Part shown: in pieces, positions 1,357-32,165 of the stretch | Layout: each line of letters begins with the position of its first letter | How positions within the stretch are numbered: position 1 is the first letter of the stretch | Assembly (NCBI GenBank): GCA_050246315.1 | Contig: JBFWWG010000002.1 | Coordinates: forward strand, 561,159-625,158 | Length of the DNA stretch: 64,000 nucleotides | Source of the DNA: Nitrospiraceae bacterium | Lineage (GTDB): Bacteria > Nitrospirota > Nitrospiria > Nitrospirales > Nitrospiraceae | Reading direction: 5' to 3' | Notes under the pieces: generated by a model | What the model saw: only the letters and a program-made list of their open reading frames with translations | Told to the model about the DNA's origin: nothing | The model's database searches: none | Made by a program: the position numbers and the translations under genes

Positions 1357-1551
1357 ATGGGAAACCGTGAATCCGTTGCTCAGTGGAACGACCAAGCGAT
1401 TGAGGATGTCATCCTGCGAAGCCTGCTAGGGATTCGCTACGGTTCGATCGAGATCATCGTGCACGACTCGCGGATCGTCCAGATTGAACGCAAAGAAAAA
1501 GTACGATTCGACATGGCTCAGGCACGGGCCGACTCGAAAAGCGTGGGCTGA
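1357..1551 (+). CDS. YezD/DUF2292 family small protein
   Basis: LLGIRYGSIEIIVHDSRIVQIERKEKVRF signature; GGAGG RBS. Confidence 0.88.
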   Translation: MGNRESVAQWNDQAIEDVILRSLLGIRYGSIEIIVHDSRIVQIERKEKVRFDMAQARADSKSVG

Positions 1552-1566
1552 AACCGTATCGGCCCA

Positions 1567-1655
1567 GAAGGCTGCCGGCCGTCCAGCACATACTGGAGGC
1601 CCAGCCTTCCTCTAATTAGCAGCCGACCAGGCGAGCTGACCGGACAACCGGAGGT
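1567..1655 (+). promoter_or_regulatory. Candidate cis-regulatory RNA: repeated GCYGWCCRG-loop-CYGGAGGY hairpins
   Basis: Copies at 1578-1600 (inside outer stem GAAGGCTG/CAGCCTTC) and 1635-1655; partial copy at 1622-1630. Confidence 0.5.
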
Positions 1656-1681
1656 TCCCATGTCACGAAGGAGCTTCAGAC

Positions 1682-3322
1682 ATGAGAACGTCCGGTGTGC
1701 GCCCTTTCATCATTCTTATCCTTCCAGCAATCTTGGCCCTGACTCCACCCGCAGAGGCTGTCGAAGAGGGGCAACTCGTCAAGAAGGAGGGGAAGTGGGA
1801 ATACTATTCGGGAGAAGACCCCGGTCTGAAATATCTCTACCTCAAGGGGATCATCACTCAGGACGAATACGAAAAGGGTCTCAAGGTGCTCGAGACCAAA
1901 GAGCACGCGTCGAAACCCAATTTCAATATCGACGTCAATAACGGGCTGAACATCCGTGTCGGGTCGAAATTCCTGCTGAAAATACGGCTCCTCACTCAAG
2001 TACGCTACACCTACAGCGATTACAATGAAGGCTGGGGCACAATCGGGGATTCACGCAATCCAGAAATTCTCGGTGGCCAGGTGGAATATCGAGCCGTCAG
2101 GAAACAGAGCGATTCCAGTCAGTTCTCGGTTCCCCGCGCCCACCTGCAATTCATGGGATATGCGTTCGATCCGGATTTCCGTTACAACATCTCCTGGGCG
2201 TTCGATCAAACCACCTGGGATCAGGAGGGGAGCAGTGGACGGGCCGGCCTCCTGGACGCTTATATTTCCTCCTGGCACATCCCCTGGGCAACCGTCCAGA
2301 TCGGCCAGCAGCGTGTCTGGTTCAATCGCGCCTTGATCAGCTCCATGGCCACCTCCACCTTTGCGGACAATCTGATCGTCCAAAATGCGTTTGCAGCCAA
2401 CCTGCAAGGCAGCCGCGACATCGGGATCAGCGTGCTGACCGACGAAGACCGATACAAGTTCAACTATGCCGTCGGGATCTGGGGAGGAGTCGGGGCCAAC
2501 CTTGCACGAGAGGGCACAGCCGTCAGTCAAAACGTCCTCCCTCCAACCGGGACACCGGGAGCGCCCCCAGCCACGATCACTCGCACCTACAACTACGGCA
2601 CCCGCTTCATGACCGGTGAGCTCATGTATACCGCCCGGCTGCTCTACAAGATCTCCGGCAATCCAGGGTATGGCCAAGGAGACATTCTCAACTCACGGAT
2701 ACCCCAGGCCGCCATCGCGTTCGGCTATGCGTATAACCCGGCTCAGAACTATCTGAGTTCGACTCGTTCGGACATTGTCCAGCGCGCCTACCGCCAGCGC
2801 GTCGCCAAAGCCTATAACGGCCGACTCCTCGCCGGGGGCATTTACGATTTCCAAACGTATGATGTGGACTTTATTGCGAAGTACCAAGGCTGGTCGCTCC
2901 AGGCCGAAGGCTACTACCGCCACCAGCGCGTGCGCAGTACCGACAGCGGAACCCAACCATACGATCTCAACACGATCCCGTCTCCCCAAATTCTTGGTCC
3001 ACCGGTGAACCTGGGCCAGGCCTGGGGCTATTACGTGCAGGTTGGGAAATATATCATTCCCCGCAAACTTGAACTCGCCGTACGATATGGATTCATGGAC
3101 CCGTCAACCGAGCAGACTCACGACCTGCTCAAGGAATTCGGCGCCGCCATCAACTACAGTTTCGACGGGACCTACAACAACCGACTCGTTATCGACTATT
3201 CCAACATCACGATGGGAAGCGGCGGGCGGGCCCCTGATCGCTTTCCCTTTGAGAGCGAACCGGGCTTCGGACGCGATCTGATCGAAAATCGGATCAACGT
3301 GCAGTACCAATTCTATTTCTGA
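1682..3322 (+). CDS. OprO/OprP-like anion-selective outer membrane porin (paralog 1)
   Basis: Signal peptide; KGIITQDEYEK helical N-domain; LLDAYI, GQQRVWFNR, RDIGI and GWSLQAEGY motifs; C-terminal YQFYF beta-signal. Confidence 0.75.
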   Translation: MRTSGVRPFIILILPAILALTPPAEAVEEGQLVKKEGKWEYYSGEDPGLKYLYLKGIITQDEYEKGLKVLETKEHASKPNFNIDVNNGLNIRVGSKFLLKIRLLTQVRYTYSDYNEGWGTIGDSRNPEILGGQVEYRAVRKQSDSSQFSVPRAHLQFMGYAFDPDFRYNISWAFDQTTWDQEGSSGRAGLLDAYISSWHIPWATVQIGQQRVWFNRALISSMATSTFADNLIVQNAFAANLQGSRDIGISVLTDEDRYKFNYAVGIWGGVGANLAREGTAVSQNVLPPTGTPGAPPATITRTYNYGTRFMTGELMYTARLLYKISGNPGYGQGDILNSRIPQAAIAFGYAYNPAQNYLSSTRSDIVQRAYRQRVAKAYNGRLLAGGIYDFQTYDVDFIAKYQGWSLQAEGYYRHQRVRSTDSGTQPYDLNTIPSPQILGPPVNLGQAWGYYVQVGKYIIPRKLELAVRYGFMDPSTEQTHDLLKEFGAAINYSFDGTYNNRLVIDYSNITMGSGGRAPDRFPFESEPGFGRDLIENRINVQYQFYF

Positions 3323-3362
3323 GACGGCAACGGATCATTCCATCAGTACGAGGAGACCCATC

Positions 3363-4187
3363 ATGAGACGACTCCGTCTGCATTTTGGAACGTACCTGCT
3401 CTTCAGCCTGGTCGCCATCCTGATCCAGGTCACATCTCTGCCCGCCCAACAACCGGAGCCCCTGACCATTGCGGCCGCAAACAGTCTTCGCGACGCATTC
3501 CGCGAGGTGCTTCCCCTCTTCGAATCACGACATCCGGATATCAGGGTGCGCGTGATCTACGGCCCTTCCCAGACACTCCGGAAGCAAATCGAGGAGGGGG
3601 CGCCGGTCGATGTGTTCCTTCCGTCGCTGTTCGAGGAGATCGAAGATCTGGAGAAGAAGAGCTTGCTGATCAACGGAACCAAATATGTCTATGGAGGGAC
3701 CTCCTTGGTATTGGTGACCAATGCGGCGTTGCCGGCTCCCGTCGACTCGATCCAGGCCCTCAAGACCGTCTCGATACGGCGCTTGGCCGTCGGTGATCCC
3801 AAAACGTCCTCCGTCGGGAAAGTGGCGGCACAATTTCTCAAATATAGTCGGCTGGATGAACGGCTTCGGTCGCACTACGTGTATGGCGAACACTCCCGAG
3901 CGGTTCTCGACCTGGTAGCTCAAGGAGAGGCGGAGTTGGGGATTGTGTATCGAACCGATGCGGTCTCCAACACAAAAGTGCGGATCGTCGATACGGCCCC
4001 TCAGGACTCTCACACACCCATCCACTATGGAGTCGCGGTGGTCTGGTCCCACAGGAATCTGGCCTGGGGCCAAGGATTCATTGAGTTCCTCTCGAAGGCT
4101 GAGGTCCAGGCCTCGTTGCAGAAGTACGGATTTGATCGTGTCTCGACCGACACCGGCCTTGGCCAACGGAAGGAGGTCAAACCATGA
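3363..4187 (+). CDS. modA: ModA-family molybdate/tungstate-binding periplasmic protein (paralog 1)
   Basis: AAANSL, QIEEGAPVDVF, AVGDPK, GEAELGIVYRTDA, HTPIHY, LQKYGF. Confidence 0.85.
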   Translation: MRRLRLHFGTYLLFSLVAILIQVTSLPAQQPEPLTIAAANSLRDAFREVLPLFESRHPDIRVRVIYGPSQTLRKQIEEGAPVDVFLPSLFEEIEDLEKKSLLINGTKYVYGGTSLVLVTNAALPAPVDSIQALKTVSIRRLAVGDPKTSSVGKVAAQFLKYSRLDERLRSHYVYGEHSRAVLDLVAQGEAELGIVYRTDAVSNTKVRIVDTAPQDSHTPIHYGVAVVWSHRNLAWGQGFIEFLSKAEVQASLQKYGFDRVSTDTGLGQRKEVKP

Positions 4188-4918
4188 ACCACATCAACAA
4201 GCGGAGGATGGAGAGCCGAGCCTGGCCGCTCCCAGCGGCTGCAGTCATGATCGGCCTGGCAGTCCTCCCCGGTTGCGCAGGTCAGCCTCCCACCAAGACT
4301 ACCTCTGTGTTGGAAGCAGGGCGGAACGTGGTCCAGCTTGAGGCCGATCCGGAGTCCACCTCCAATTCTCATCCGGCCACCCTCACGTCCGCGGAGGTCG
4401 GAACGTTGCTGCGAGGAGTGCGCGCCTGGGAACGGCGAAACCTTTTCCATCGACTCTACGCCGGGGAAGCTCCAAGGACCAGAGCCTTTCGGGACAATGA
4501 GATCGCCCTGTTGGCGCCCGCACTCTCCAAGGCCTTGGCGCAGGCCGATCCCTCCGAGCGTATCTATTTCCACCTGAGCCACGCCACCGAAGCCGGTGAG
4601 GAGGAGACGACCACCGGATGGATTGCTGTCCGAGAGCCGATTCTCTATTTGGCAGTGAGCGAGGTGCACGACCGACACGGCCCGGTTCCGGACATCAGCA
4701 AATACGATCGCCAGATGCCGAACGTTCCGGAGGTTTCCGCCGCATTCGACGTGATCTTCGAACCGGAGGAGTATCTCCAGGCAGTTGAGAGCAAGGGGCG
4801 CTTCTGGGCGACGGATCAACGCGAAGAGTTGCAAATCCGTTATCGAGAAGCATTGGGGTCCATGCCGACACATCCCGGCCTACCAATGAACTCAGCGCCG
4901 ACCCCGTCTCTACCTTGA
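4184..4918 (+). CDS. Hypothetical lipoprotein (family shared with 19861-20562 and 51507-52313)
   Basis: Lipobox LPGC; ATGA overlap with modA; SHPATLT, AFRDNEI and GWIAVREP motifs. Confidence 0.75.
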   Translation: MNHINKRRMESRAWPLPAAAVMIGLAVLPGCAGQPPTKTTSVLEAGRNVVQLEADPESTSNSHPATLTSAEVGTLLRGVRAWERRNLFHRLYAGEAPRTRAFRDNEIALLAPALSKALAQADPSERIYFHLSHATEAGEEETTTGWIAVREPILYLAVSEVHDRHGPVPDISKYDRQMPNVPEVSAAFDVIFEPEEYLQAVESKGRFWATDQREELQIRYREALGSMPTHPGLPMNSAPTPSLP

Positions 4919-5267
4919 GTTGGAGACAAGGCATCATGGTGATGCTGGTCGTGGATGATGATACGGTTATCGCGTCTGAAGCGGCGTGCAGACGCTTTTG
5001 CCGGATCGGAGTGCTCGGCACTCGCAGGGTCACGGAGGAGCCCCTTCATGTCGTTAGGCTCACCCGCATGATTCATGAACGCTTCTGCTGCAATCGCGGA
5101 TTCGCCACTGCAACAGCGCCAACATACAAGGTCGAAGGCACAGGGTCTCTCCGCCTCGATATGATCGAACGATGCACGATTGTGAGAAATGGTCGCCTTC
5201 CCTCAAGCATCGTGCCGCCCGATTCAACCGCTCGGCCCGGGTGGCACGGAGGAGACCCGAAGCATGA

Positions 5268-6893
5268 TCAAGGAATGGCAGGGCTGGTCAAATCGTTATG
5301 CACGCTGTTGTTGCTTGCGTTCACGTCAATGCCCCCGGCAGGAGGTGGTTTATCGAGATCGACGAATTGAAACGTCCCGAAGGGTTGGATCTGGTCGTCG
5401 GACGGCAATTGATCTCGGTTCCAGCCTCCGCCGAGCGCACGGATCAGTGCGACCGAGGATGTCAGGAGTTCGGCCTTGATCTGGACAGACTCGATGCGTG
5501 CCGTGAGCGTTTGGACCTGCGCATAGATCAGTTCGAGGCTGGAGGCCAGCCCACCTTGATAGAGCTCCATAGTCAGATTTTGAGCCTTGAAGTTGGCTCC
5601 GACGGAGGCGTCTTGCCGGTTGGCCGCGACGGTCAGCCGGTTGGTCAAGCTCAAATTGTTCTCGACCTCGCGAAACGCATTGAGCACCGTCGAACGGTAG
5701 AGGTCTTCCGTCTCACGATAGGCAGACCAGGCCTGCTGCAATTGGGCGCGGCGATACCCGCCTTGGAAAACCGGCAGCGCAACAGTGGCGCCATAGGACC
5801 AAAAACTATTGGCCAGCGAGATCAAATTGATACCGACATCCTCGAATCCACCGCCGATCCGAAACCTCACATCGGGAAAAAAGGCGGCACGGGCGATGCC
5901 GATAGCGCGGTTCGCCTGCGCCATCCGGCGTTCCATAGCGGCAACGTCGGGCCGACGTTCCAGCAAGGTGGATGGGATCGTCTGCGGAACTGAAAAATTC
6001 ACGACCCGTAGCTCATCGACCGGCTTGATGGTGAAACTGGCCGGGGCCATGTTGACGAGAATGGCGATCGCCTGTTCCGCCACCTGACGTTGTCCTTGAA
6101 CGCGGGCTAACTGCGTCTCGGTACTGAACAGCAGGGATTCGACGCGAGCGACGTCAAGCGCCGACGCGATCGCGCCGGCAAATTGGGCCTTGACGAGATC
6201 AAGCGATTGTCGATACAGCGTGATCGACTGAGAATAGATGGCGATTTGCGCGTCGTAGCCGCGCAGGGTGAAATAGTTCGCCCCGATTTCCGCCTGAAGG
6301 CTGAGGCGCGCAAGCCCCCAGTCGGCGGCGCGTTCTTCGGCACGGTAGGTTTCCACTCGCGTCGCATTGCGGATCGCCGACCAGAAGTCGGGTTCCCACG
6401 CTGCCAATCCGCCTAGGAGCACGGTCGATTGTCTACTATCGATATCGGGCGGGCGAAACAGCGCATTATCGGATAGGCGGTTGTTTGAAGCGTCAAAACC
6501 CACACCAACCTGCGGGATACGGCGCGACCTGGCCTTCATCATCATATCCCGAGCCTGTATGAACCGCTCGGCGGCGGCCTGTAGATCCGGATTGGCCACC
6601 ATCGCCTGATCAATGAGCCTGTTCAGAACCGGATCGTCGTAGAGTTGCCACCAATCCGGTCGCAATTCGTCATCCGACGGCTTGGCTTCGACGAAGGGAC
6701 TCGCGCCTCGCCATGAGGCAGGGACGACATATTGAGGCGGTTCATAGGAAGGCGCGAGGTCGGCATGCGGCAGCCAGTCGCTTTGGCATGCGGAGAGAGT
6801 GAGCATCAAGAGGAGCAGGCCGCTGCGCCGCTGAAAGGCACGAACCATAGACGGCACGTCTGAGTTCACACGCGGTCGCAGGCCGATGATCAT
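5268..6893 (-). CDS. RND efflux outer membrane lipoprotein, NodT/OprM family
   Basis: Lipobox LSAC; WWQLYDDPVLNRL, PSTLLERRPDV, AFREVEN, LIRALGGGW. Confidence 0.92.
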   Translation of the reverse strand: MIIGLRPRVNSDVPSMVRAFQRRSGLLLLMLTLSACQSDWLPHADLAPSYEPPQYVVPASWRGASPFVEAKPSDDELRPDWWQLYDDPVLNRLIDQAMVANPDLQAAAERFIQARDMMMKARSRRIPQVGVGFDASNNRLSDNALFRPPDIDSRQSTVLLGGLAAWEPDFWSAIRNATRVETYRAEERAADWGLARLSLQAEIGANYFTLRGYDAQIAIYSQSITLYRQSLDLVKAQFAGAIASALDVARVESLLFSTETQLARVQGQRQVAEQAIAILVNMAPASFTIKPVDELRVVNFSVPQTIPSTLLERRPDVAAMERRMAQANRAIGIARAAFFPDVRFRIGGGFEDVGINLISLANSFWSYGATVALPVFQGGYRRAQLQQAWSAYRETEDLYRSTVLNAFREVENNLSLTNRLTVAANRQDASVGANFKAQNLTMELYQGGLASSLELIYAQVQTLTARIESVQIKAELLTSSVALIRALGGGWNRDQLPSDDQIQPFGTFQFVDLDKPPPAGGIDVNASNNSVHNDLTSPAIP

Positions 6894-8161
6894 GGCGAAA
6901 CCGACGAGGAATGTGCCGCTTGTTCCTTAGGCTCTGATTGTTGCGGTGACTCCGACTGATCAGGCGGTCTCAATTTGTCCTTTGACGCCACGGTTTCGGT
7001 ATTGACGAGGTCGTAACCCGCTGCCGGCGTCACAAGGCGCACCTTGTCGCCTTCAAGCAACGCAGCGCTGGGATTGTTGATGATCCGGTCGCTTGCCGAA
7101 AGCCCCTCCGCGACTTCGACAAATTGATCCATGAGTTTGCTCACCGTGATGGATTTCAAGTGAACTCTGTCGTCCTCCGTCACCACGGCCACTTGCGTGC
7201 CGTGCTCCTGGAACACCAACGCGGTGGACGGCATCGTGAATGCTTGTCGATCGACCGGAGCCGTGAGATGGACCTCGGCGTAAGAACCGGGCCAGAGCGT
7301 TCGGTCCTCATTGTCGATCGTAAAGACCGTCACCGCGGTGCGCGTACTTACATCGAAGCCTTTTGAGACCGTCAGAAATTTTCCAATGAAATGACGTTTG
7401 GGCAATTGCGGCACGGTCACGTCGGCCGTCAGACCCGGCTGGAGGAAAGGCCCGAACGATTCCGGCACGTTGACGAAAAGACGCAATATGTGGACGTCGG
7501 CCACTGTAAACAGGTTGCTTTTCGCATTGGGGGTGTTGAGGTTACCTTCCTTGCTGACCAAGTCGCCGACATTAATGTTGCGCTGGGTCACCACGCCGTC
7601 GAAGGGGGCGACGATTGTTTTGAACCGTATGAACGCTTCGATATTCCTGACCTTTTGTTCTGCGGCCTTGACCTTCGCCGCTTCGGCTTTCAACTCCTGT
7701 TCCTTGACGGTGATCGATTGTTCGGAGACTGCGTGATTGGGACGGAGCGCGATCCAGCGCTTGGCGGTCACCTCGGCAAGCTTATACCTGGCACGTTCCG
7801 TATCCAAATCTGCCTTGGACTGCGCATATTCGGCGTCGAGATCCGGCGCATTGATTTCGGCGAGAATGTCGCCTTTCTTCACATGGTCTCCGTAGTCCTT
7901 GTACCACATTTTTACATAGCCGGTGACGCGCGCGTACATGGGCGCCTCGTACCAGCCCACGATATTGCCGGGAAGCGTAATGGTCTCGGTCGCCGGCACC
8001 GGCTTTGCGGAGACGACGGCCACGGTCGAAATGGCCTCTTCGAGTGTCTTCTCCCGCAGCAGCGCGGCGTCACCTCTACTCTCATAGACCCGATAGCCCA
8101 CATAGCCCACGCACAACAAGACCGCTGAAAGGACCATGCCTCTTCCACCGAATGTCTTCAT
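6890..8161 (-). CDS. RND efflux periplasmic adaptor (MFP)
   Basis: ARVTGYV...DYGDHVKKGD and IVAPFDGVVTQR lipoyl half-motifs. Confidence 0.92.
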   Translation of the reverse strand: MKTFGGRGMVLSAVLLCVGYVGYRVYESRGDAALLREKTLEEAISTVAVVSAKPVPATETITLPGNIVGWYEAPMYARVTGYVKMWYKDYGDHVKKGDILAEINAPDLDAEYAQSKADLDTERARYKLAEVTAKRWIALRPNHAVSEQSITVKEQELKAEAAKVKAAEQKVRNIEAFIRFKTIVAPFDGVVTQRNINVGDLVSKEGNLNTPNAKSNLFTVADVHILRLFVNVPESFGPFLQPGLTADVTVPQLPKRHFIGKFLTVSKGFDVSTRTAVTVFTIDNEDRTLWPGSYAEVHLTAPVDRQAFTMPSTALVFQEHGTQVAVVTEDDRVHLKSITVSKLMDQFVEVAEGLSASDRIINNPSAALLEGDKVRLVTPAAGYDLVNTETVASKDKLRPPDQSESPQQSEPKEQAAHSSSVSP

Positions 8162-9855
8162 GAGGTCTGTCCCTTTTGCCGGGCCATTCGCCGGCTGTAG
8201 ATCATCGCGTATACGCAGGGCACGAAAAACAGCGTAAAGATGGTGGCCACGAGCAAGCCGCCGATGACGGCGCGACCCAACGGCGCATTCTGAGAATAGC
8301 CCGTCGCCATGGGAACCATTCCGATAATCATGGCCGAGGCGGTCATGAGTACCGGGCGGAAGCGGGTCTTCCCGGCTTCGACCGCGGCCAAGAGCGCGTC
8401 GCCGTGCTCATGGAGCCGCTCACGAGCATACGACACAACGAGGATCGAATTGGCGGTCCCCGTGCCCATGGTCATGATGGCCCCCGTCAGTGCGGGCTCC
8501 GACAGACGCGTATGAGTCAGGAACAACGCCCACGCGATGCCCGCCAAGGCACCGGGCAACGCCGTAATGATGATGAAGGGGTCGAGCCAGGATTGGAAAT
8601 TGACGACGATCAGCAGATACACCAGCACGACCGCGGCGAGTAGGCCGAAGATCAGCTCGAAATAGGCGTCGTGCATCAGCGACGCCTGGCCATGGATTTC
8701 GACCTCGGCGCTGCGCGGCTTCTCGTGCTCCATGTTGTGGACAATCTTCTCGACATCCGTCAGCACACCGCCGAGATCGCGCCCTTCGGCGGAGACATAG
8801 ACGTTGAACAGCGGCATGATGTTCCCGTGCGTGATCACGCCGGGCGTGCCCTCCGCCGACAACTCGGCCAAATTGCCGAGGAGTTGCACATCACGATCGT
8901 TCGAAGAACTACCCGCGGCATCGACCGGGACCGTTTTGATACTATTGACGCTGTTGATCTGCGACTGCGGCGTATACACATTGATCAGATACGACATGCC
9001 CGTACTCGGATCGAGCCAGTAAATTTGATCGACCTGTTGACTCCCGGCGGTCGTCATGAGCAGGTTGTCGGCCATGTTCTTCAGGGTCCGGTTGACTCCG
9101 AGTCCGAACGTGCGGTCGCCTTCCACCATCAGGGTCGGCGTGCGCATCGTCTGCTGAATCACCACATCCGCAGCGCCGGGAATCTCGCGAAACTTCCCAA
9201 CTAATTTACGGGCAAACTCATAGTTGGGGTACATGTCCGGGCCGTTGACCTGCACGTCGATCGGCGCAGGGGCGCCGAAGTTGAGAATTTTTGCGGTCAG
9301 ATCGGAAGGCTGGAACGTGAACTCCGTTCCTGGATAGCGTTCTCTCAAGCCCTTGCGGAGAATGCGCCGATAGTCCCACACCGGCGATTTCTCATCCTTC
9401 AACAGGATCGTCAGATCACAATCCTGGGACCCGATCGTCGGCGTCGGAATGAAGGCGAGGTTGTGCGGCCCGACCGGCAGACCGCAATTGCTGACAATGT
9501 TTTCGACCTGGCCCGGCAGCAACTGCTCGATGCTGTTGGAGACGAGCGTGGCAATGCGCCCCGACACTTCGATGCGCGTCCCAAGCGGCGCCCGCATATG
9601 CATCTGAATGACTCCGGACCTGATCTCGGGAAAGTAATCGCGTCCCAAGAAGAAAAAGAGGGACAGGGAAGCCACCGCGATGGCCAGCGAGATCGTGACG
9701 AAGGTCTTACGACGGGCGATCACCCGTTCGAGCAGCCTGCCATAGCCCTCGCGAAACCGCTCGAAGCGGCGCTCGAACCCCCTCTGAAAGCGGACGAACG
9801 GATTCCCCGACGGCTTGACGCCGTCATGTCCATCCTGGTTATGCGGCTGCGACAT
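8158..9855 (-). CDS. RND permease, C-terminal half (split gene or frameshift)
   Basis: FQSWLDPFII, ANSILVV, RFRPVLMT, LGRAVIGGL, TLFFVP (second RND repeat). Confidence 0.85.
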   Translation of the reverse strand: MSQPHNQDGHDGVKPSGNPFVRFQRGFERRFERFREGYGRLLERVIARRKTFVTISLAIAVASLSLFFFLGRDYFPEIRSGVIQMHMRAPLGTRIEVSGRIATLVSNSIEQLLPGQVENIVSNCGLPVGPHNLAFIPTPTIGSQDCDLTILLKDEKSPVWDYRRILRKGLRERYPGTEFTFQPSDLTAKILNFGAPAPIDVQVNGPDMYPNYEFARKLVGKFREIPGAADVVIQQTMRTPTLMVEGDRTFGLGVNRTLKNMADNLLMTTAGSQQVDQIYWLDPSTGMSYLINVYTPQSQINSVNSIKTVPVDAAGSSSNDRDVQLLGNLAELSAEGTPGVITHGNIMPLFNVYVSAEGRDLGGVLTDVEKIVHNMEHEKPRSAEVEIHGQASLMHDAYFELIFGLLAAVVLVYLLIVVNFQSWLDPFIIITALPGALAGIAWALFLTHTRLSEPALTGAIMTMGTGTANSILVVSYARERLHEHGDALLAAVEAGKTRFRPVLMTASAMIIGMVPMATGYSQNAPLGRAVIGGLLVATIFTLFFVPCVYAMIYSRRMARQKGQTS

Positions 9856-22803: not shown

Positions 22804-22937
22804 GCTGTCACCTCCTCGCACCGTCCAGACGTGGCCGAAAGCCGTTTCCGGCAAGGACACCGAATACCCTAATATCCATCAGGAGTACGGAGGTAGGCAT
22901 AGCACGATCAATACCCATGTATCGCTCGACAGGGGTG

Positions 22938-22973
22938 GCAGGGGCTTGTCGACAGGAGCGAGCAAGCCCCTAC
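22938..22973 (-). repeat. GTAG-type REP-like palindrome
   Basis: Minus strand GTAGGGGCTTG...CAAGCCCCTGC; 9-bp perfect stem at 22940-22948/22963-22971. Confidence 0.45.
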
Positions 22974-23049
22974 TACAAGCGAGGCGAGCGGGAGACGGTG
23001 GGCTCCTCGATCGCACGGAACAGGTCGAATGAAGCCCGCCGCAGCGCCT

Positions 23050-24959: not shown

Positions 24960-26008
24960 GGAATTCCTTTCAGCATCTCCTCCGCCTCCTCCTCCGACAA
25001 TTGATAACGGAAGAACTGGACGTAGAACCGCTTCATTGCGCCGGTCAGATCCACGTCACCGACCCGACCCGGATGGAACAGCGTCGCAGCCCACAACACT
25101 GTCAGCGGCTGCTCGGCCGTTCGGTATCCCCACGGATGAGCGCCGGCGGGAATCGCATGGACCCGTCGCTGGCGGACCGCCTTCACGTGCCGGAATCGCG
25201 GCTCCTGATAGACTTGCTCGATCTCAACCGGAGCGCTCACGATCAGAATATCGGGATTCCACGCCAACACCTGCTCGGGCGACACCGGCAGACTCTCGGT
25301 CAGGCGGCCGTCGGACGTCACGCTCACTCCCCCACCTTCCGTGATCCACCATTCTCCGATCAGATGCGGCACACTCATCATTCTCAGGCTTAAGAACAAG
25401 ACGCGAGGCCGATCGGAGCTTGGCAGACTCCCCACGGCCGATTGAACGACCCCCAATGTCTCGCCCAGAAACTCCAGGTATCTTCTGGCCTCATCACGCC
25501 GCTCCAGCGCCTCCCCCAGCAACACAATGGTGCGCTCCATGTCGTCACGGTTCCTCCACGAGAGGCACAGGACGCGTAAGCCCTTGTTCGTCAACGCGTC
25601 GGCCAGGGCACGATCCATGGTCAATACGACATCCGGGCGGAGTGCGATCAATGCTTCCATATTGGGTTCGTGGCCGGGTCCCTGGACGACGGGGAGCGAG
25701 GAGAGTGCCGGAGCGATCCGTCGCTGATACTGGTGGCGTCGGGTCTGCGCAAAATAGGGAAGCCCGTTCACAATGGCATCGCCTCTTCCCAACGCGAAGA
25801 CAAAGCTGTTCAAGACCGGAACAGGCCCGAGCGTGGCGACTCGCGTAATGCCGGCCGGCAACTCCACCGTCCGACCCGCCAGATCGACGAACGTCCGCGC
25901 TGCGCCGCTCCCTTGGCCCAATGCCGGTGAGGAACGCGCACCGACCAAGAGCAGACACCACAGCAGCGAGCATGCAAGGATCGCTGCAACCCGACATGAC
26001 CGATTCAT
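24956..26008 (-). CDS. Helical-backbone (class III) periplasmic binding protein
   Basis: Signal peptide; DLAGRTV, PNMEALIALRPDVV, EQVLAWNPDIL, AHPWGY; ATGA overlap with tonB. Confidence 0.88.
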   Translation of the reverse strand: MNRSCRVAAILACSLLWCLLLVGARSSPALGQGSGAARTFVDLAGRTVELPAGITRVATLGPVPVLNSFVFALGRGDAIVNGLPYFAQTRRHQYQRRIAPALSSLPVVQGPGHEPNMEALIALRPDVVLTMDRALADALTNKGLRVLCLSWRNRDDMERTIVLLGEALERRDEARRYLEFLGETLGVVQSAVGSLPSSDRPRVLFLSLRMMSVPHLIGEWWITEGGGVSVTSDGRLTESLPVSPEQVLAWNPDILIVSAPVEIEQVYQEPRFRHVKAVRQRRVHAIPAGAHPWGYRTAEQPLTVLWAATLFHPGRVGDVDLTGAMKRFYVQFFRYQLSEEEAEEMLKGIP

Positions 26009-27159
26009 TGAATTCCATAGCTGATCGGAATCTTCACCGTAATGGACTCCTTCCCGAGGTCGTAGGTCAATGAAACCGGCGAGAGCCTGCCCAGCAGTTT
26101 CAAGGCTTCGTCGTCGAGGATGTCGTGTCCCGAACTGTGGAGGACCTCCAAATCGGTCAACGTCCCGTCGTTCCACATCACCGCCCTGACCACGACTCGC
26201 CCTTCCAGTTTACGATCCAACGCAAGCTGCGGATACCGCTTCATCCGTTCGATGTGGCTTTGCAACAGCTCTTTCAACCACCCGTAGTGGGCCTGCGAGC
26301 CAGGGGCTGCTTTCGCCGTAGGCCGGCTCTCGGGTGCGTCGCGCCGGCTCCATTGAGGCCTTGGGACAGATCCGTGCGCAGCCACCCGCACCTCCACCTC
26401 TTGAGTGTGACGATTGACGGATGCCGCCGGGCGTTCCACCAGGCCGTCTTCGAATGCCCGTTGCTGCGTGGGGACCTTGTGCACCACCTCACCACGCTCG
26501 ACCGGTTTGGATAGATTGGATATAGGAGTCGAAGCTGACACGGTTGGCGAATGGGGCGCATCCGAGACGGGATCGCTAAGAACCGCGCTTGCCGACGACA
26601 CAGCAGTCGGGCTCACGGACTCAGGAACGCTGCGCACTTCCGTTGCCACTCCCGACGGTTCGGGCAGAACGGCAGCAACCTCTCGCTCCATGATGCCCTC
26701 CTCCGCACGTTGGACCTCATGCTGAATGACTTCAGCGCTACGGCTGACGCTTCGTTGTTCAACCGGCATGCTGGCGTTCAACGGCGGCGCAACGGACGCT
26801 GTGGCCTCAACCGCCGCTGCGTCTCGACGCTCAACCGTTCGATCCTGAACAGGCTGCTTCTCAACCGTCTGCTCCATGGCCCGACGATCCTGAATCGGTC
26901 GTTCCTGAACCGTCTGCGCCTTTGACGGCCGCTCCTGAACCGGTTGTCGAGGTGGCGGCTCGGAAGGAGGCGCTTCCGGAGGTGATACGGTGGATCGCTG
27001 GGATTGGTGCATCACCACTTCCCATCGAAACGGTTCGTCCGGTAAGGGCCTGGGCTGGAACTGCGCCATCAAGAACGCTCCGGCCACACAAAGGGCATGC
27101 AGAATGACGGACACGCTCCAACCCTGTGCGTGGTAGGACGGTTTCACCGACTGATCCAC
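26005..27159 (-). CDS. tonB: TonB family energy transducer
   Basis: SVILH TM motif, long Pro/Glu-rich linker, YPQLA..LEGRV and SSGHDILDDEA C-terminal domain. Confidence 0.88.
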   Translation of the reverse strand: MDQSVKPSYHAQGWSVSVILHALCVAGAFLMAQFQPRPLPDEPFRWEVVMHQSQRSTVSPPEAPPSEPPPRQPVQERPSKAQTVQERPIQDRRAMEQTVEKQPVQDRTVERRDAAAVEATASVAPPLNASMPVEQRSVSRSAEVIQHEVQRAEEGIMEREVAAVLPEPSGVATEVRSVPESVSPTAVSSASAVLSDPVSDAPHSPTVSASTPISNLSKPVERGEVVHKVPTQQRAFEDGLVERPAASVNRHTQEVEVRVAAHGSVPRPQWSRRDAPESRPTAKAAPGSQAHYGWLKELLQSHIERMKRYPQLALDRKLEGRVVVRAVMWNDGTLTDLEVLHSSGHDILDDEALKLLGRLSPVSLTYDLGKESITVKIPISYGIQ

Positions 27160-27267
27160 TCATTCCCTCGCCCGATTTGGCTATGTCACGCCCCTCCTGA
27201 AATCCGATCAGGCAGAGACCTCGATGCCATATATAATATATTCTCGTCAACTATAATGGACACTGGG

Positions 27268-29556
27268 TCAAAACTTTAAGCCGATCGAGCCGGCCACTGT
27301 GAAGGGAGCGCCAGGAAAATAGGCGGCGTTGCCGCCGAGCCGATCTTCAAAGGCATTGATCACGCCGACGTACCTCTTGTCGAACAGATTCAAGAACTGT
27401 ACGCTCAGGAACCCGTCCTTGACGCCTGGAATAGCTCGAAACAGCTTCGGATTGGTATAGGTCAGGAACAAGTCCACGACGGTATAGGGGGAGACTCGCT
27501 CCGTATTGGTCACGTTCCCGAACCGGGCGCCGATGTAGCGGACGACCGGGGCAATCTCCAAGCCATACAGTTTGTAACTGATTCCTCCCTTGAGCATGAA
27601 CTCAGGAAAATCCGGGGTCGCGTGCCCCTTGGTTTGGACGATCGCTCCCGAGGGTGTGGTGGTATCGGTGACCATCTTCGACTTGCCGTAATACACCGAT
27701 CCGTACACTGACAGGTCCTCAATCGGCATCGCTCCCGCTTCCAATTCGCCTCCGTAGGCCTTGGCATCCGCCGCGCTCGACCTGACGTTGGTATTCAGAG
27801 CGGGGTCGAACACACCGACCAGCAGGTTTTCGTAATAGGTATAGAACAGCACGGGGGCCACATAGACCTTATCAGTGTGATAGCGGAGGCCCAGATCGAC
27901 ATTTTGAGACGTCGCCAATTTGACCCGATCGACCAGGCTTTGAATCGTGAGTCCCGCCGCATCGAACCGCGCCCTGTTGTTGGCGAAGGTCTGTTGAAAC
28001 TCGGGGAACCCGTGCGGTTGCGCGTAATTCTTGCCGTAGGTCACATAGGTCGTCACGTGTTGATTGACGGCGTAACTGAGGCCGACATTCGGCAACCAGG
28101 TCTCATAGGTCTGGCCTGTATAACTGGCCGCCGGATCCTTAGGGGGATTCAGCGCCAACGCATCTTCATAGCCCACGTTCGGAATGCCCGCATTGTTGAA
28201 TCCCGTGACCGGAGGCTCGTACATGTTGAAATAGCGGAATCCCGCCTCCACGTGCAGGGCGCTGAAATTCTTGGCGAGCTTGACGTAGGGACTATTGATC
28301 ACCCCGTTGCCTTCCTTCTTCGTCAATAACCATTGGTCGAATTGGAGTTGACCGCCCGGCACGCGAAAATATTTTTCGGCGATCGGGAGGCTGAACTGCT
28401 CATACCAATAGCCGACCTTGATCTCCGTATCCCACAGCCGGGTGGCATATTCGAACACGCTTCCGTAGCGGTCGAATTGGTTGGTTCGATCACGGACGGC
28501 CCCCGGAGTTCCGAGAAAGTTCCCAACCCCCGCCAGGCGAGGAATCCACTCCCGGAAATAATAGGGCTTGATCGTGATCATATGATTGTCCGACGGCGTG
28601 ATGGTGATCAGCGAGAAGGCCTGATAATTCGAAATTGTTTCCTTGTTGAAGTCGAAATAATTCGGGTCCTGGAGGAGGTTGTTCATGATCCTGGTGTTGT
28701 AATCCAGGTCGCGCGCCCTATCGAGATTCTGAATCTGCGCGAAGGTGAGCGGCCGGAAAGCGTGTTGCTCGGCCTCGTTGAAGTCGAAGAACAGATCCGC
28801 TTTGACATACCGAGAAAATTCCTGACTGGCACCGAACGACACATGGTTGCGGTTCGTTGGCGCCCCCCCTTCGCCCCGCCACTTGTCGGCCGTGGTGTAG
28901 GAATAGGACGCATATAGTTTCGTTCCGGTCGAGAGCGTCCCCGAATCAATTCTGGCAAAACTCCGCAGAAAGCTGTACGAGCCGAAACTTTGACGGACGT
29001 CGACGCCGAAATGATCCGACGGACGTAGGACGCCAATATCGATCGCTCCCGCAATGTTCATGGCTCCGAGACCCTTGTCAGGCGGAATCGCTCCCCGATA
29101 GAGCGTAACCCGCGAGACATTTTCGAGATCCAGCATGTCAGGTCGCGGGCCCGGGGACTCCTGCGCCCAGACCGGCACGCCTTCGATCGTCATCGCGGTG
29201 CCCTTCCCCGGCTGTCCCCTCACCCGGAAATTAAACGGTGTCCGGGTATTGAGCCCATAGGGATCGGCTGTTTCGACGGTCACCGATGGCAGCAGACGGA
29301 GCGTCTGATAGATGGAAGTCTGTGCGGGCCCGCCCAGCTTTTGAATGGCGTCTTTGGACACCGTGGTCTCCGTCCGCGGTTGCACCGTCTTTTCTTCGAT
29401 AAACCCCCTGCTCTGCACACCTTTGACCTGAACGTCCTCCAGCGCCACTTCGGTCGGTGTGGCTTGTTTAGACTCCTCCTCGATCGACTGCGCGAGAGCC
29501 GGACCCAGCGACACGAACATCAGGGCCAGAACCCCAAACGAACGAACAAGCTCCAT
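27268..29556 (-). CDS. TonB-dependent outer membrane receptor
   Basis: Signal peptide; plug motifs LRLLPSV, RVRGQ, MTIEGVP, GAIDI; NLFDKRY; C-terminal GLKF. Confidence 0.93.
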   Translation of the reverse strand: MELVRSFGVLALMFVSLGPALAQSIEEESKQATPTEVALEDVQVKGVQSRGFIEEKTVQPRTETTVSKDAIQKLGGPAQTSIYQTLRLLPSVTVETADPYGLNTRTPFNFRVRGQPGKGTAMTIEGVPVWAQESPGPRPDMLDLENVSRVTLYRGAIPPDKGLGAMNIAGAIDIGVLRPSDHFGVDVRQSFGSYSFLRSFARIDSGTLSTGTKLYASYSYTTADKWRGEGGAPTNRNHVSFGASQEFSRYVKADLFFDFNEAEQHAFRPLTFAQIQNLDRARDLDYNTRIMNNLLQDPNYFDFNKETISNYQAFSLITITPSDNHMITIKPYYFREWIPRLAGVGNFLGTPGAVRDRTNQFDRYGSVFEYATRLWDTEIKVGYWYEQFSLPIAEKYFRVPGGQLQFDQWLLTKKEGNGVINSPYVKLAKNFSALHVEAGFRYFNMYEPPVTGFNNAGIPNVGYEDALALNPPKDPAASYTGQTYETWLPNVGLSYAVNQHVTTYVTYGKNYAQPHGFPEFQQTFANNRARFDAAGLTIQSLVDRVKLATSQNVDLGLRYHTDKVYVAPVLFYTYYENLLVGVFDPALNTNVRSSAADAKAYGGELEAGAMPIEDLSVYGSVYYGKSKMVTDTTTPSGAIVQTKGHATPDFPEFMLKGGISYKLYGLEIAPVVRYIGARFGNVTNTERVSPYTVVDLFLTYTNPKLFRAIPGVKDGFLSVQFLNLFDKRYVGVINAFEDRLGGNAAYFPGAPFTVAGSIGLKF

Positions 29557-29592
29557 CGTCTCAACCCTTTCCCCTGGCCGGCCATTGGTGGT

Positions 29593-30039
29593 TCAGCACG
29601 ATTTCTGTTCCTTCCGCCCCTTGTCGAAGATCTCGATGAGGTCCCTTGCATGGCCGAGCATGACCGCAACAAGCGCGTCCAGTTTTCCTATCGCGCGAAC
29701 ACGCAGCTCTCTCGACAAGAGACGCAGCGGTTGCGGAGCACAGACGCTCAGCACCATCGGCGCGGCATCCTCCCCGTCCTGCGGACATGTCATGATCTCT
29801 CTCACAAGCAACAGGCTCTGCTCCCCCACTCGGCCAAACCCCATAACACGGGAGAGCCGATATCGCTTCCCGTCAACCATCACGCTCTCCGTGATCAGCG
29901 GATCGTCTGTGAGCCAGACTTCCAGATCCAAATTCATGGCCGCGAGCTTGCCCTCGACACAATTCAGCACTTTCGTGGTTTCCTGGTCTCGTTCCTGTAA
30001 CGGCCCGGCCAACTGACTGAGTTGAGCAAGTAGCGACAT
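29593..30039 (-). CDS. Hypothetical protein
   Basis: 148-aa ORF with AGGAG RBS between the LLM and TBDR genes; no recognised motif. Confidence 0.6.
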   Translation of the reverse strand: MSLLAQLSQLAGPLQERDQETTKVLNCVEGKLAAMNLDLEVWLTDDPLITESVMVDGKRYRLSRVMGFGRVGEQSLLLVREIMTCPQDGEDAAPMVLSVCAPQPLRLLSRELRVRAIGKLDALVAVMLGHARDLIEIFDKGRKEQKSC

Positions 30040-30100
30040 CGCCTGTGACTCTCCTTTCCCGTGACGGTTATCGCTCTCGTCACGATCTCCGACATGGGCT

Positions 30101-31111
30101 TCAAGTGGGGTTGGCTGCTCCTGGCTGATGGGTGGACATGCGCGGCATCACCTCACGCGAAAGCAGCATCAAAGAACGTCGTAAGTGATCGGCGGGAAGA
30201 AATCCGAAGAACGATGATAGGCAGTTGACATAGTCAATGCCCAGCAGACCGCGCAATTCGGCCAGCCGCTGTGCGCAGGTATCCGGTCCTCCGGCGATAA
30301 CCATCTCTCGAAGAAATCGCTCGGGCTCCAGATCGTCGATCGTCAACGTCCCCGGACGCTCAGGAATGCGCGCCTGCTTCAAACGGCCGGTCAGTCGCTC
30401 AATGACTGGTGTCAACTCGTGCGCGGCATCCGCATCGCTCTCGCTCACGTAGAGAAATCTGCCGACCGGTATCTCGTGGACCTTCCCTCCTTCGTCGCCG
30501 AACGCACGCACCATTCTTTGCACGTTGGCCATCGATTGAATGCCGTGTTGAATGAGCTGATGACCGGCCCGTGCCGCCCACCGGGCCCGGTCCTCGCTAT
30601 ACGTCCCGATATAGAGGGGCGGATGCGGACGTTGCATCGGCTTCGGCAGAATGCAATACCGGCTCTTTCCAATCGGCACCTCGTCTTCGGTCCAGCAGCG
30701 CAACACCAGATCCAGATCCTCATCAAACCGCGTTCGACCTTCCTGCGGGTCCAACCCGTAGGCCTCCGAATAGGACGGATTGCCTCCGCGAGAGATGCCA
30801 ACGTCCACACGTCCTCCGCACAACACATCAAGCGTCGCGATTTCCTCAGCGAGCCGAATCGGATGATGCAGGGGCAGCAGCAAGACCGAGAACCCGAGTC
30901 GAATGCGACTCGTCCCGGCCGCCAGCACAGCCGCAAGGACGACCGGAGAAAGGCACAAGCGTCCCGAGCCGCCTGAAGGTTTTTGAAAGTGCTCTTCGTT
31001 GATCCATAGCGCTTCGAAGCCAAGCCGCTCGGCCCACTGCGCATACTCGCCAAGCCGCTCAGGCGCTACAGCCTCGAGACCAGCTCCACAACCCGACAGT
31101 CCAAATTTCAT
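30101..31111 (-). CDS. LLM-class (luciferase-like) flavin-dependent oxidoreductase
   Basis: MKFGL, AERLGFEALWINEEHF, HHPIRLAEEIATLDVL.GGR, PKPMQRPHPP. Confidence 0.92.
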   Translation of the reverse strand: MKFGLSGCGAGLEAVAPERLGEYAQWAERLGFEALWINEEHFQKPSGGSGRLCLSPVVLAAVLAAGTSRIRLGFSVLLLPLHHPIRLAEEIATLDVLCGGRVDVGISRGGNPSYSEAYGLDPQEGRTRFDEDLDLVLRCWTEDEVPIGKSRYCILPKPMQRPHPPLYIGTYSEDRARWAARAGHQLIQHGIQSMANVQRMVRAFGDEGGKVHEIPVGRFLYVSESDADAAHELTPVIERLTGRLKQARIPERPGTLTIDDLEPERFLREMVIAGGPDTCAQRLAELRGLLGIDYVNCLSSFFGFLPADHLRRSLMLLSREVMPRMSTHQPGAANPT

Positions 31112-31346
31112 CGTGACTCTCCCGTTTCGGTCCATGAATACGATACCCTCTCTGAAATCGGGACACCTTGACCGCGGCCTCCACTTTCTTTGTTCTTGAT
31201 CAGCCGCTCCGATGGGTCTTTGGACCCATGACTTCAGCGCCAGTCATGAAATAGTCAGGATGGAGCAGACGCGAATTCGGTCTCATGGCAAAGCCTGCCA
31301 TGGCCGTCGCGACATGGTGACTACGATCAGCAGTTCGGACGTGATG

Positions 31347-32114
31347 CTAGGAGGACGGAGACTGAATCGAGATGGGCGCAGTGGGAGGAAGACTCTCGGG
31401 CGGCAGGAACCCTTTCGCGATTCTGGTAAGACGATCAGGATGGACGAGCGTGATGTTCCTCCCCTCAAGGATGACTAGGCCCTCATCTTCGAAGGCCTTC
31501 AGAAGTCTGGTGGCCGTTTCAGCCGTGATGCCGGCCATTTCAGCCATTTCTTCGCGTTTGAAGCTCACCGCCAGCACGATGTTCCCGTCGACGCTCCGAC
31601 CGAAGCGGGCCGCGATCGTGACAAGCAGGTCTGCGAAGCGCTCGCGGGCCGATCGCAAGGTAAAGCGTTCCAGATCATCGATATGCGTTTGAGCCTCCTC
31701 GCTCAGCAGTCGAATGAGCTTCACCGCAAGGTCGCCGTTGCGGCGCACGAGGTCAAGATACGGTTCTCGCTCGATCAAGCAAATCTCGGAACGCTCGAGT
31801 GTTTCGCACGTCACCTCATGAATCGCGTTCGGCACGAAGGCGTACTTCTCGATCAGTTCACCGGCATCCACGATCCGCACGATCAGGCGCTGTCCGCGCA
31901 TGGAGGTCCGAGTCAGCTTCACCTGGCCCTTGCACAAGACATACAGCCAGAGACAGGCATGGCCTTCATAGAAGACGACCTGATGCGGCTCATAGGAGAG
32001 GACTTTCTTGATCCGGCCAAAGGCAGGTAGGTCCTCTTGACGCAGATCTGCGACGACCTGCTTCGAGCTTGAACAGGCCTGACAGGCGGCGAGCATACGT
32101 GTGCGTGGCGGCAT
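31347..32114 (-). CDS. Crp/Fnr family transcriptional regulator with N-terminal CxxC
   Basis: CQAC; cNMP-like domain (G.VKL, GELI); SARERFA; HTH REEMAEMAGITAETATR; start at 32114 or 32096. Confidence 0.9.
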   Translation of the reverse strand: MPPRTRMLAACQACSSSKQVVADLRQEDLPAFGRIKKVLSYEPHQVVFYEGHACLWLYVLCKGQVKLTRTSMRGQRLIVRIVDAGELIEKYAFVPNAIHEVTCETLERSEICLIEREPYLDLVRRNGDLAVKLIRLLSEEAQTHIDDLERFTLRSARERFADLLVTIAARFGRSVDGNIVLAVSFKREEMAEMAGITAETATRLLKAFEDEGLVILEGRNITLVHPDRLTRIAKGFLPPESLPPTAPISIQSPSS

Positions 32115-32135
32115 AATCGCGAGAGTTCTTGCGGG

Positions 32136-32165
32136 AGTGTATTCCAATAACTTTATTTATGTCAA
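32136..32165 (-). promoter_or_regulatory. Sigma70-type promoter of the Crp/Fnr gene
   Basis: TTGACA-N18-TACACT, same hexamers and spacing as 1241-1270. Confidence 0.6.

Follow-up and report, generated by a model that had tools for sequence, protein, structure and literature searches.

Gene content of the locus

We analysed a 64,000-nucleotide stretch (the window) of a Nitrospiraceae genome (GenBank assembly GCA_050246315.1, contig JBFWWG010000002.1, positions 561,159 to 625,158 of the forward strand), in which the span 1357–32165 had originally been predicted to be a single molybdenum/tungsten acquisition island. The genome comprises 4.39 Mb in 30 contigs and is labelled G000 below. Genes were mapped from an open reading frame (ORF) listing combined with Pfam and NCBIfam scans of the window proteins. 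The core of the span is a co-linear array of 11 genes on the minus strand, running from 22860 down to 12852 in the order regulator, ModA4, LipoB, PorinB, TOBE-repeat protein, Oxidored_molyb-like protein, ModA3, Lipo163, Mop, ModB and ModC. The locus most plausibly represents an extended ModABC system with a dedicated outer-membrane module, a non-ModE regulator and optional extra routes in this lineage. From the sequence evidence we hold, with moderate confidence, that the locus is an acquisition and homeostasis cluster of the Nitrospiraceae for group-6 oxyanions (molybdate, possibly tungstate), built on ModA3-ModB-ModC.

The importer consists of the canonical binding protein ModA3 (15392–16255), the permease ModB (13922–14650; 224.6 bits to TIGR02141, cut-off 182.6) and the ATPase ModC (12852–13946), which carries ABC_tran and C-terminal TOBE domains. 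Mop (14681–14884) is a molbindin whose 67 amino acids and single TOBE domain (62.7 bits, cut-off 22.3) fit the form of about 70 residues with one TOBE. The TOBE-repeat protein (17162–18040) contains two to three diverged TOBE-like segments in Pfam: TOBE at residues 47–108, TOBE_2 at 123–180 and a third, weak segment. Six-frame searches of the 4.39 Mb found three TOBE matches (Mop, ModC and the TOBE-repeat protein), all inside the island, and ModE, with its helix-turn-helix (HTH) and two TOBE domains, was not found among them. All ModA matches of the genome are likewise the four in the island, and ModB and ModC are each single, the other ModB-like matches being 28–32% identical.

All four ModA-family proteins exceeded the TIGR01256 cut-off of 62.5 bits: ModA3 scored 212.1, ModA1 (3363–4187, plus strand) 164.9, ModA2 (11895–12710, plus strand; 43% identical to ModA1) 123.7 and the divergent ModA4 (20657–21511, minus strand) 76.8. 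The oxyanion ligands of Pseudomonas aeruginosa ModA are Asn33, Thr60, Tyr141 and Ile168 (PMC9171197). ModA3, whose best PDB matches are ModA structures, was aligned to the P. aeruginosa structure and within a 12-sequence alignment, and all four positions are kept. ModA1 and ModA2 keep the E. coli-type positions, namely Asn/Gln, Ser and the Tyr of GIVY, which we take to be Tyr170 of the E. coli protein.

The core shares part of its design with a plus-strand module A, made up of a DUF2292/YezD small protein (1357–1551; 56.8 bits), PorinA (1682–3322), ModA1 and the lipoprotein LipoA (4184–4918). PorinA and its core counterpart PorinB (18046–19830) are 37% identical over their full length (567 columns, E 5e-104), LipoA and LipoB (19861–20562) are 37% identical, and ModA1 and ModA4 28%, so that the porin/ModA/lipoprotein trio is duplicated. 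PorinB belongs to the OprO/OprP family in Pfam (Porin_O_P, PF07396, 51.8 bits, cut-off 20.9), and PorinA, with no Pfam match at E ≤ 0.01, is tied to it by sequence identity alone. In both porins a helical stretch at the N-terminus, which contains a SHOCT-like motif (G-[LI]-IT-x-[ED]-EYEK), precedes the barrel; the SHOCT match of PorinB is below threshold in Pfam.

A minus-strand block extends upstream of the core from 32147 to 23050, with genes for a CRP/FNR-family regulator, a luciferase-like oxidoreductase, a 148-amino-acid (aa) protein, a TonB-dependent receptor (TBDR), a TonB-family protein, a Peripla_BP_2 binding protein, a FecCD-family permease and an ATPase. Pfam and NCBIfam thus bore out the gene list of the original prediction, which had named four ModA proteins, one ModB and ModC, Mop, a multi-TOBE protein, porins, lipoproteins, the regulator and the TBDR operon. 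All of these genes are real; left out of that inventory were an RND efflux operon at 5268–11338 and the luciferase-like and CRP/FNR genes.

A conserved core with lineage-specific insertions

Conservation was assessed in two comparisons. The first covered 40 kb around the top LipoB match of each of 10 relatives, and the core gene order was kept in all of these regions. The second used 80 species-level loci, kept from 252 relatives retrieved with an alignment of PorinA and PorinB, so that the presence of the porin in these loci is by construction. The organisms are named Nitrospira, Nitrospiraceae, Nitrospirota/Nitrospirae or uncultured bacterium, the exception being L061, 'uncultured Nitrosospira sp.'. 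Forty of the 80 loci had full 10-kb flanks, and gene presence in these full loci was scored by tblastn at E ≤ 1e-8.

The regulator, ModA4, LipoB and ModA3 were each found in 40 of 40 full loci, ModB and ModC in 39 and Lipo163 in 34; Mop lies between Lipo163 and ModB in 39 loci. The parts of module A were less frequent (LipoA 24/40, ModA1 23/40, PorinA 22/40), and DUF2292 stands upstream of PorinA in 10 loci and in five of the 10 regions of the first comparison (G002, G004, G010, G012 and G021). Rarer still were the TOBE-repeat protein (11/40), the TBDR and the Oxidored_molyb-like protein (3/40 each), the FecCD permease (2/40) and ModA2 (1/40). Most relatives have the PorinA module and the regulator in divergent orientation; in G000 the module sits beyond the RND insertion. 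The block of the first RND system (RND1) and ModA2 occurs in the window's own genus only (G000, G001, G002), and the luciferase-like, CRP/FNR and 148-aa genes only in G000 and its near-identical relative G002. In several relatives (the L038, L064, L069 and G014 regions) a second ModB-ModC pair was seen directly behind the first.

The mod genes, porins, lipoproteins, Mop/TOBE genes and the XRE-PBP_like regulator therefore form one syntenic unit across the Nitrospiraceae, and the non-mod genes of the core keep their order with the mod genes among these relatives, as the original prediction needed. The claim that the whole 31 kb is one unit did not hold, since RND1 and ModA2 are confined to one genus, the TBDR was present in 3 of 40 full loci, and the luciferase-like, CRP/FNR and 148-aa genes were seen only in G000 and G002. 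By sequence comparison the span is a composite of a conserved core of about 13 kb and lineage-specific insertions. The core cluster is present in Ca. N. defluvii (L073) and N. moscoviensis (L100), and these cultured organisms make experiments feasible.

An outer-membrane channel is retained by non-orthologous exchange

In a sample of 151 genomes of the phylum, searched at E ≤ 1e-20, PorinB relatives were detected in G000, in 10 of the 18 further genomes from its family and in none of 132 genomes from 21 other families. In one genus, 8 of 11 sampled genomes had no such porin. A ModA search in five of these eight gave one match in each of four genomes and two in the fifth, one of the two with stop codons. 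All three porin-less loci inspected keep the regulator, ModA3, ModB, ModC and the LexA-like gene that follows ModC, and ModA4, LipoB, Lipo163 and Mop were not found in them at E ≤ 1e-6. In both porin-less loci tested, the gene between the regulator and ModA3 encodes an Alginate_exp-family (AlgE-like) outer-membrane channel (L113:8147-9757 and L114:8306-9829; 192.9 and 213.3 bits), which has no sequence relation to PorinB.

An outer-membrane channel has thus been retained at the regulator-ModA3 position by a non-orthologous swap. Of the evidence gathered, this swap speaks most strongly for assigning the channel to molybdate uptake: the AlgE-type channel of these relatives, at the same position, argues for a dedicated outer-membrane entry. 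On this point the original prediction gained support, because a channel gene, OprO/P-like or AlgE-like, was always encoded at this place.

Lipoproteins without family models

LipoB and its homologues have an invariant lipobox Cys and an invariant His-Pro motif. LipoB has no Pfam or NCBIfam match; its homologues are named merely 'hypothetical', and the corresponding Atlas clusters 'hypothetical protein' or 'Lipoprotein family protein'. Where organisms are named they are Nitrospira, Nitrospiraceae or Nitrospirae, and the commonest phylum of the Atlas clusters is Nitrospirota. The LipoA/B family thus appears, from these database entries, to be unnamed and confined to the Nitrospirota. All 41 relatives in a tally that includes the unpublished genome G009 contain it, with 1–9 matches per genome. 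An AlphaFold model of LipoB (pLDDT 77) gave no fold relative in the PDB by Foldseek at E ≤ 0.001, and the best Z in a wide VIA-align search was 3.6. Lipo163 (14881–15327 or 14881–15372, minus strand, its start codon being uncertain) has the lipobox GCS and two conserved Cys, and no Pfam match even at E 10. Its best fold match, to a chain of the Salmonella flagellar LP-ring (7bgl; Z 6.2, rmsd 3.6, 71 residues aligned), is below the level that the tool treats as meaningful and was set aside. The cluster thereby adds two lipoprotein families that have no Pfam model, and for one of the two no fold relative is detectable.

LipoA/B paralogues occur elsewhere in the genome beside a phosphate-type porin cluster, a urea-type ATP-binding cassette (ABC) operon and a second RND outer-membrane factor. 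The first cluster (L025, G000:C2:52001-72000, at about 7443–12579) contains a Porin_O_P protein of 562 aa, a lipoprotein of the Slp family, a paralogue of Lipo163 at 42% identity and a LipoA/B paralogue of 308 aa with a coiled-coil tail, and is adjoined by a PstS-like PBP_like_2 gene and Ppx/GppA. By its gene content it looks like a phosphate-type copy of the same porin/lipoprotein design. At the second place (L026, G000:C5:262001-282000, 7872–15956) a LipoA/B paralogue (326 aa) and a 392-aa coiled-coil protein are divergent from an unassigned 463-aa protein and the urea-type ABC operon (Peripla_BP_5 and two BPD_transp_2 genes). The third lies in the window itself, where a second RND efflux system (45631–52313; an unsplit 1086-aa permease, MFP and OEP) has a LipoA/B paralogue (51507–52313, minus strand) converging on its OEP gene. 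What these settings have in common is an outer-membrane channel.

We then modelled a complex of PorinB (residues 100–594), ModA4 (29–284) and LipoB (33–225), scoring LipoB as the partner. The median score over three runs (0.59, 0.36 and 0.77) was 0.59, and the best of three controls was 0.00; the pass mark of this score is reached by 116 of 157 solved complexes and by 2 of 215 mismatched pairs, and scores of 0.60 or less include 18 of the 157 solved complexes together with both passing mismatches. The runs share at least 47% of contacts, with a partner pLDDT of at least 76. When PorinB alone was replaced and ModA4 kept, the LipoB score fell to 0.00, suggesting that LipoB contacts the porin rather than ModA4. 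The models lend weak support to a docking of LipoB on PorinB.

These data bear on the possibility that LipoA/B and Lipo163 are generic envelope lipoproteins, such as channel anchors or assembly helpers, with no direct oxyanion role. We rate this as possible, at somewhat under even chances: the occurrence of paralogues next to other systems (phosphate porin, urea ABC operon, efflux channel) speaks for it, as does the loss of the modelled contact on porin replacement while ModA4 was kept. Each paralogue, however, stays with a specific channel, and the start of LipoA overlaps the stop of ModA1; moreover, a generic channel role would be compatible with an extended molybdate system and not opposed to it.

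A candidate regulator and shared promoter-like elements

The regulator (21565–22860, minus strand; likely true start ATG 22761) combines an N-terminal HTH_3/XRE domain with a PBP_like domain (PF12727, 209.1 bits, cut-off 27). It aligns with the C-terminal part of a model for archaeal-type MoeA fusions (E 1.3e-61), and PF12727 is described as fused to MoeA in Desulfovibrio (PMC10102598). Sequence matches in the PDB were to XRE-type repressors only and covered the HTH alone.

The motif ATWNTTGACR occurs five times in the window against 1.01 expected, and none of 100 shuffles reached five. All five sites are inside the island; no other 32-kb span of the genome is as dense in this motif (70 matches in 4.39 Mb), and the island holds three of the genome's five exact copies of ATACTTGACA. 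Four of the five sites are at a promoter position: ATTCTTGACA at 1237–1246 (plus strand), an extended −35 element upstream of the DUF2292/PorinA operon; ATACTTGACA at 22794–22803 (minus strand), promoter-like and upstream of the regulator's likely start at 22761; ATAGTTGACG at 27245–27254 (minus strand), upstream of TonB; and ATACTTGACA at 32160–32169 (minus strand), immediately upstream of the CRP/FNR gene. The fifth, ATACTTGACA at 20618–20627 (plus strand), lies between ModA4 and LipoB, antisense to the genes. Across relatives, 44 of 65 loci have the motif before the regulator and 22 of 31 have it on the side of PorinA, and two extended −35 elements recur, a ATAGTTGACA type before the regulator and the palindrome TATTGTTGACAATA before the PorinA module. 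The shared motif suggests a common control that may include the accessory module. The 14-mer palindrome TATTGTTGACAATA was itself set aside as a window-wide signal, being less informative than the shorter motif: with up to three mismatches it occurs four times against 1.25 expected, 5 of 100 shuffles reach four, and two of the sites are inside RND genes.

No Rfam family, the molybdenum cofactor (Moco) and cobalamin riboswitches included, reached its gathering score in the 64-kb window. Sigma-54 promoters (TGGCAC-N5-TTGCW, up to two mismatches) were not enriched, with 26 against 25.5 expected, so the sigma-54 regulator adjacent to the span could not be linked to the cluster.

A TonB-dependent receptor module beside the regulator

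The accessory block directly upstream of the regulator encodes the parts of a type II ABC importer, namely the ATPase (23050–23898), the FecCD-family permease (23886–24959) and the Peripla_BP_2 binding protein (24956–26176, start uncertain), followed by the TonB-family protein (26005–27159) and the TBDR (27268–29556, with plug and barrel domains), all on the minus strand. The nearest solved relative of the permease is MolB (HI1471; 2nq2_A, E 4.2e-61, 210 bits), followed by FhuB at 153 bits. As a control, the sole other FecCD permease of the genome prefers hemin permeases, and HI1471 comes fourth. MolBC-A is described as a type II importer of molybdate and tungstate (PMC4245157). The binding protein matches MolA (3psa) partially, over residues 282–391 (E 3.2e-15). 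The second importer class of the original prediction is upheld to this extent, the type II permease being most like MolB and the control paralogue differing.

In L033, L038 and L064 (genomes G043, G044 and G045), TBDR orthologues with 79–81% identity stand immediately upstream of the regulator; in these loci the gene order differs from that of G000 and the flanking core genes are 55–63% identical. Of five genomes searched for the receptor, three have an orthologue, all at this place; no orthologue was found in N. defluvii, and the only match in N. moscoviensis was at E 5e-4. Oxidored_molyb-like genes accompany the TBDR in G000/L028, L033 and L064 and are absent from full loci without it. The G000 protein (16341–17015, minus strand) is an exported, distant member of the Oxidored_molyb fold (PF00174, 37.4 bits, cut-off 24). 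No twin-arginine motif was seen by eye in its N-terminus, and it has no usable PDB sequence match, so its molybdenum-ligand Cys could not be placed. We regard the association of the TBDR module with the regulator as a recurrent physical link, which is not proof of a molybdenum substrate. The adjacent TBDR operon of the original prediction is in this sense substantiated: in the genomes checked, the receptor was found only beside this regulator.

The TBDR block might instead be an ordinary iron-siderophore, heme or corrinoid operon and RND1 a drug or metal efflux pump, both inserted by chance next to a core that alone is related to molybdenum. We consider this unlikely, though by no means negligible. 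Its case is that just 3 of 40 full loci have the TBDR module and a single genus has RND1 with ModA2; that the TBDR partially matches the siderophore receptor model TIGR01783 (82.3 bits against a cut-off of 223.5, C-terminal part only); that the ATPase is nearest to FhuC; and that the nearest solved relatives of the binding protein are annotated just as periplasmic or iron-complex binding proteins. Chance insertion, however, has to contend with an orthologue beside the regulator in all five genomes found to have it, in two gene orders, and with the two genomes that lack the TBDR at that place and have no orthologue elsewhere. It also sits poorly with the co-occurrence of Oxidored_molyb-like genes and the TBDR, with a permease closer to MolB than the genome's other FecCD permease is, with the shared motif before TonB, and with the empty riboswitch search, cobalamin included.

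The second insertion is the RND1 operon on the minus strand, comprising the outer-membrane factor OEP1 (5268–6893), the periplasmic adaptor MFP1 (6890–8161) and a permease in two parts, a C-half (8158–9855; ACR_tran profile positions 499–1020) and an N-half (9839–11338; positions 4–494). The halves (together 8158–11338) lie in different frames and overlap by 17 nt. G001 (91–96% identity) and G002 have the split as well, which suggests a conserved permease encoded by two genes, or a programmed frameshift, and not a recent pseudogene.

A model of extended molybdate acquisition

Beyond ModA3BC, Mop and the TOBE domain of ModC, the mechanism is one that we infer. The anion would pass the outer membrane through the two OprO/P-type porins, each with one Nitrospirota-restricted lipoprotein seated on it, and ModA1 and ModA4 could act at or near the porin exit as capture or relay proteins or as sensors. 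ModA3 would hand the anion to ModBC. In the cytoplasm, Mop, the TOBE-repeat protein and the TOBE tail of ModC may buffer the anion and feed back on transport, and the XRE-HTH/PBP_like protein would replace ModE as the oxyanion sensor, acting at the shared extended −35 promoters. In this lineage, the TBDR, TonB and the MolBCA-like type II importer could add an energised second route, and the RND efflux pump with ModA2 a further element.

Several results weigh against this reading. ModA4 is the trio member conserved in every full locus, yet it lacks the canonical oxyanion ligands: in 26 sequences it has an invariant Ser-Pro at ligand position 1, D(D/S)(G/A) at position 2 and Phe/Ser where canonical ModA has Tyr, together with a 10–12-residue insertion and invariant motifs of its own, so it may bind something else, or nothing. 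ModC scores 266.6 bits against TIGR02142, under the curated cut-off of 285.05, and 288.9 bits against the WtpC model (cut-off 440). The loss of the porin in 8 of 11 genomes of one genus indicates that the trio is dispensable, the paralogues beside unrelated systems indicate that the lipoprotein family is not specific to molybdenum, and the complex prediction is weak, one run scoring only 0.36. The shared motif contains an ordinary −35 hexamer and may mark nothing more than strong promoters. In the accessory block, the partial NCBIfam matches of the TBDR are to siderophore and heme receptors, and the best solved relative of the ATPase is FhuC, in a comparison that does not discriminate among ATPases. 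DUF2292, which opens module A, is known as a neighbour of sulfate-uptake genes. At L115:377-6822 (minus strand), the operon divergent from the regulator consists of DUF2292, a distant porin (29% identity) and CysTWA-like ABC genes, an arrangement that hints at the same architecture serving sulfate there.

The missing ligands of ModA4 and the DUF2292 genes of module A and L115 feed a further alternative, that the porin/ModA-like/lipoprotein trios serve another oxyanion (sulfate/thiosulfate, tungstate only, vanadate, selenate or chromate) or act in sensing, and are merely co-located with modABC. Members of SBP_bac_11 are reported to bind several oxyanions (PMC10443332), which would suit it. We nevertheless judge it improbable: in all 40 full loci the mod operon encloses the trio, which lies between the regulator and ModA3; no further permease or ATPase gene accompanies the trio; the E. 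coli-type molybdate ligand positions persist in ModA1 and ModA2; and relatives without the trio have a single ModA and a different channel at the same place. The extended molybdate cluster is accordingly our preferred explanation. The integrated scavenging system of the original prediction survives in part: core synteny, the channel and the MolB-like permease sustain it, and the unspecific lipoproteins, the missing ligands of ModA4 and the lineage-specific insertions do not.

Each component system has a known counterpart. As in the ModABC/ModE/Mop-ModG systems of E. coli and Azotobacter vinelandii, ModA3, ModB, ModC with its TOBE domain and the 67-aa Mop are present and adjacent; here, by contrast, there is no ModE, its place being taken by the XRE-HTH/PBP_like regulator, and there are three further ModA-like proteins, two porins and three lipoproteins. 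The OprP/OprO and PstS-PstCAB systems of the Pseudomonas Pho regulon likewise have a Porin_O_P channel co-regulated or co-located with a high-affinity, binding-protein-dependent ABC importer, whereas here the predicted porin is within the mod operon and has its own non-canonical binding-protein paralogue and a dedicated lipoprotein. The accessory importer resembles MolBC-A (HI1470/71/72) of Haemophilus influenzae in its FecCD permease, its Peripla_BP_2 protein and its place beside mod genes; it differs in being coupled to a TBDR and TonB, and its binding protein matches MolA over residues 282–391 only.

The TaoR family, said to have been described by Rajeev et al. in 2019, reportedly comprises tungstate/molybdate regulators with a PBP-type sensor and an excisionase-like DNA-binding domain. 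If so, the regulator here would resemble TaoR as a cytoplasmic DNA-binding protein with a PBP-type sensor encoded beside Mo/W transport genes, and differ from it in having an HTH_3 (XRE-type) domain instead of the excisionase-like one. In the H2-T6SS of P. aeruginosa, a secreted ModA has been proposed to work with outer-membrane IcmP in molybdate acquisition (PMC11734730). The cluster described here, by comparison, has no type VI secretion system (T6SS), its ModA-like proteins bear signal peptides of the ordinary kind, and a porin/lipoprotein pair would be their partner. In the literature searched, subscription papers lying outside the search, we found no description of a porin/lipoprotein/ModA-like cassette or of a TonB-dependent molybdenum route.

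Nitrite oxidisers depend on the molybdoenzyme nitrite oxidoreductase and often live at nanomolar or lower molybdenum. To our knowledge, how molybdate crosses the outer membrane is not settled, and general porins are usually assumed. A channel, lipoproteins and extra binding proteins inside a mod operon are a testable candidate for a dedicated outer-membrane step, and the cluster further supplies a possible substitute for ModE and, in some strains, a possible TonB-dependent entry for Mo/W. If true, the TBDR with the MolBCA-like importer would be the first TonB-dependent route for molybdenum or tungsten. A bolder version, which we think doubtful, would make the locus a modular outer-membrane oxyanion capture device, duplicated for molybdate and reused for phosphate, joined to a TonB-dependent Mo/W route under one PBP_like regulator. 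The device would consist of an anion porin, a docked new-fold lipoprotein and a soluble binding-protein paralogue relaying the anion to the importer's binding protein, and the TonB route would include the Moco-fold periplasmic protein.

RNA-library contigs and flanking genes

Contigs from RNA libraries (four runs, three studies) were compared with positions 12800–32200; such contigs are uninformative about level, strand or regulation, and the libraries may contain DNA. In two runs, short contigs (270–1044 nt, 0–8 differences) fell on many island genes: Lipo163, ModA3, the Oxidored_molyb-like protein, the TOBE-repeat protein, PorinB, LipoB/ModA4, the regulator, the type II permease and binding protein, the TBDR/148-aa genes and the luciferase-like gene. 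The two runs of the third study gave contigs of 15–18 kb with 95–99% identity, which look like carried-over DNA of a related strain.

Two ORFs, 4915–5370 (plus strand) and 11393–11806 (minus strand), were dropped as genes, having no family match and an odd composition. At the upstream end of the accessory block lie the genes for the 148-aa protein (29593–30039), which has no family assignment, the luciferase-like oxidoreductase (30101–31135) and the CRP/FNR-family regulator (31347–32147), all on the minus strand. They are followed on the plus strand by a sensor histidine kinase with HAMP, HisKA and HATPase domains (32129–33802; 29/40 full loci) and a sigma-54-dependent response regulator (33790–35148; 27/40). 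The LexA-like repressor (168–710, minus strand; HTH_3 of the XRE type and Peptidase_S24) follows ModC with great constancy in relatives (34 of 40 full loci). It has no obvious link to metal uptake and probably lies outside the cluster's function.

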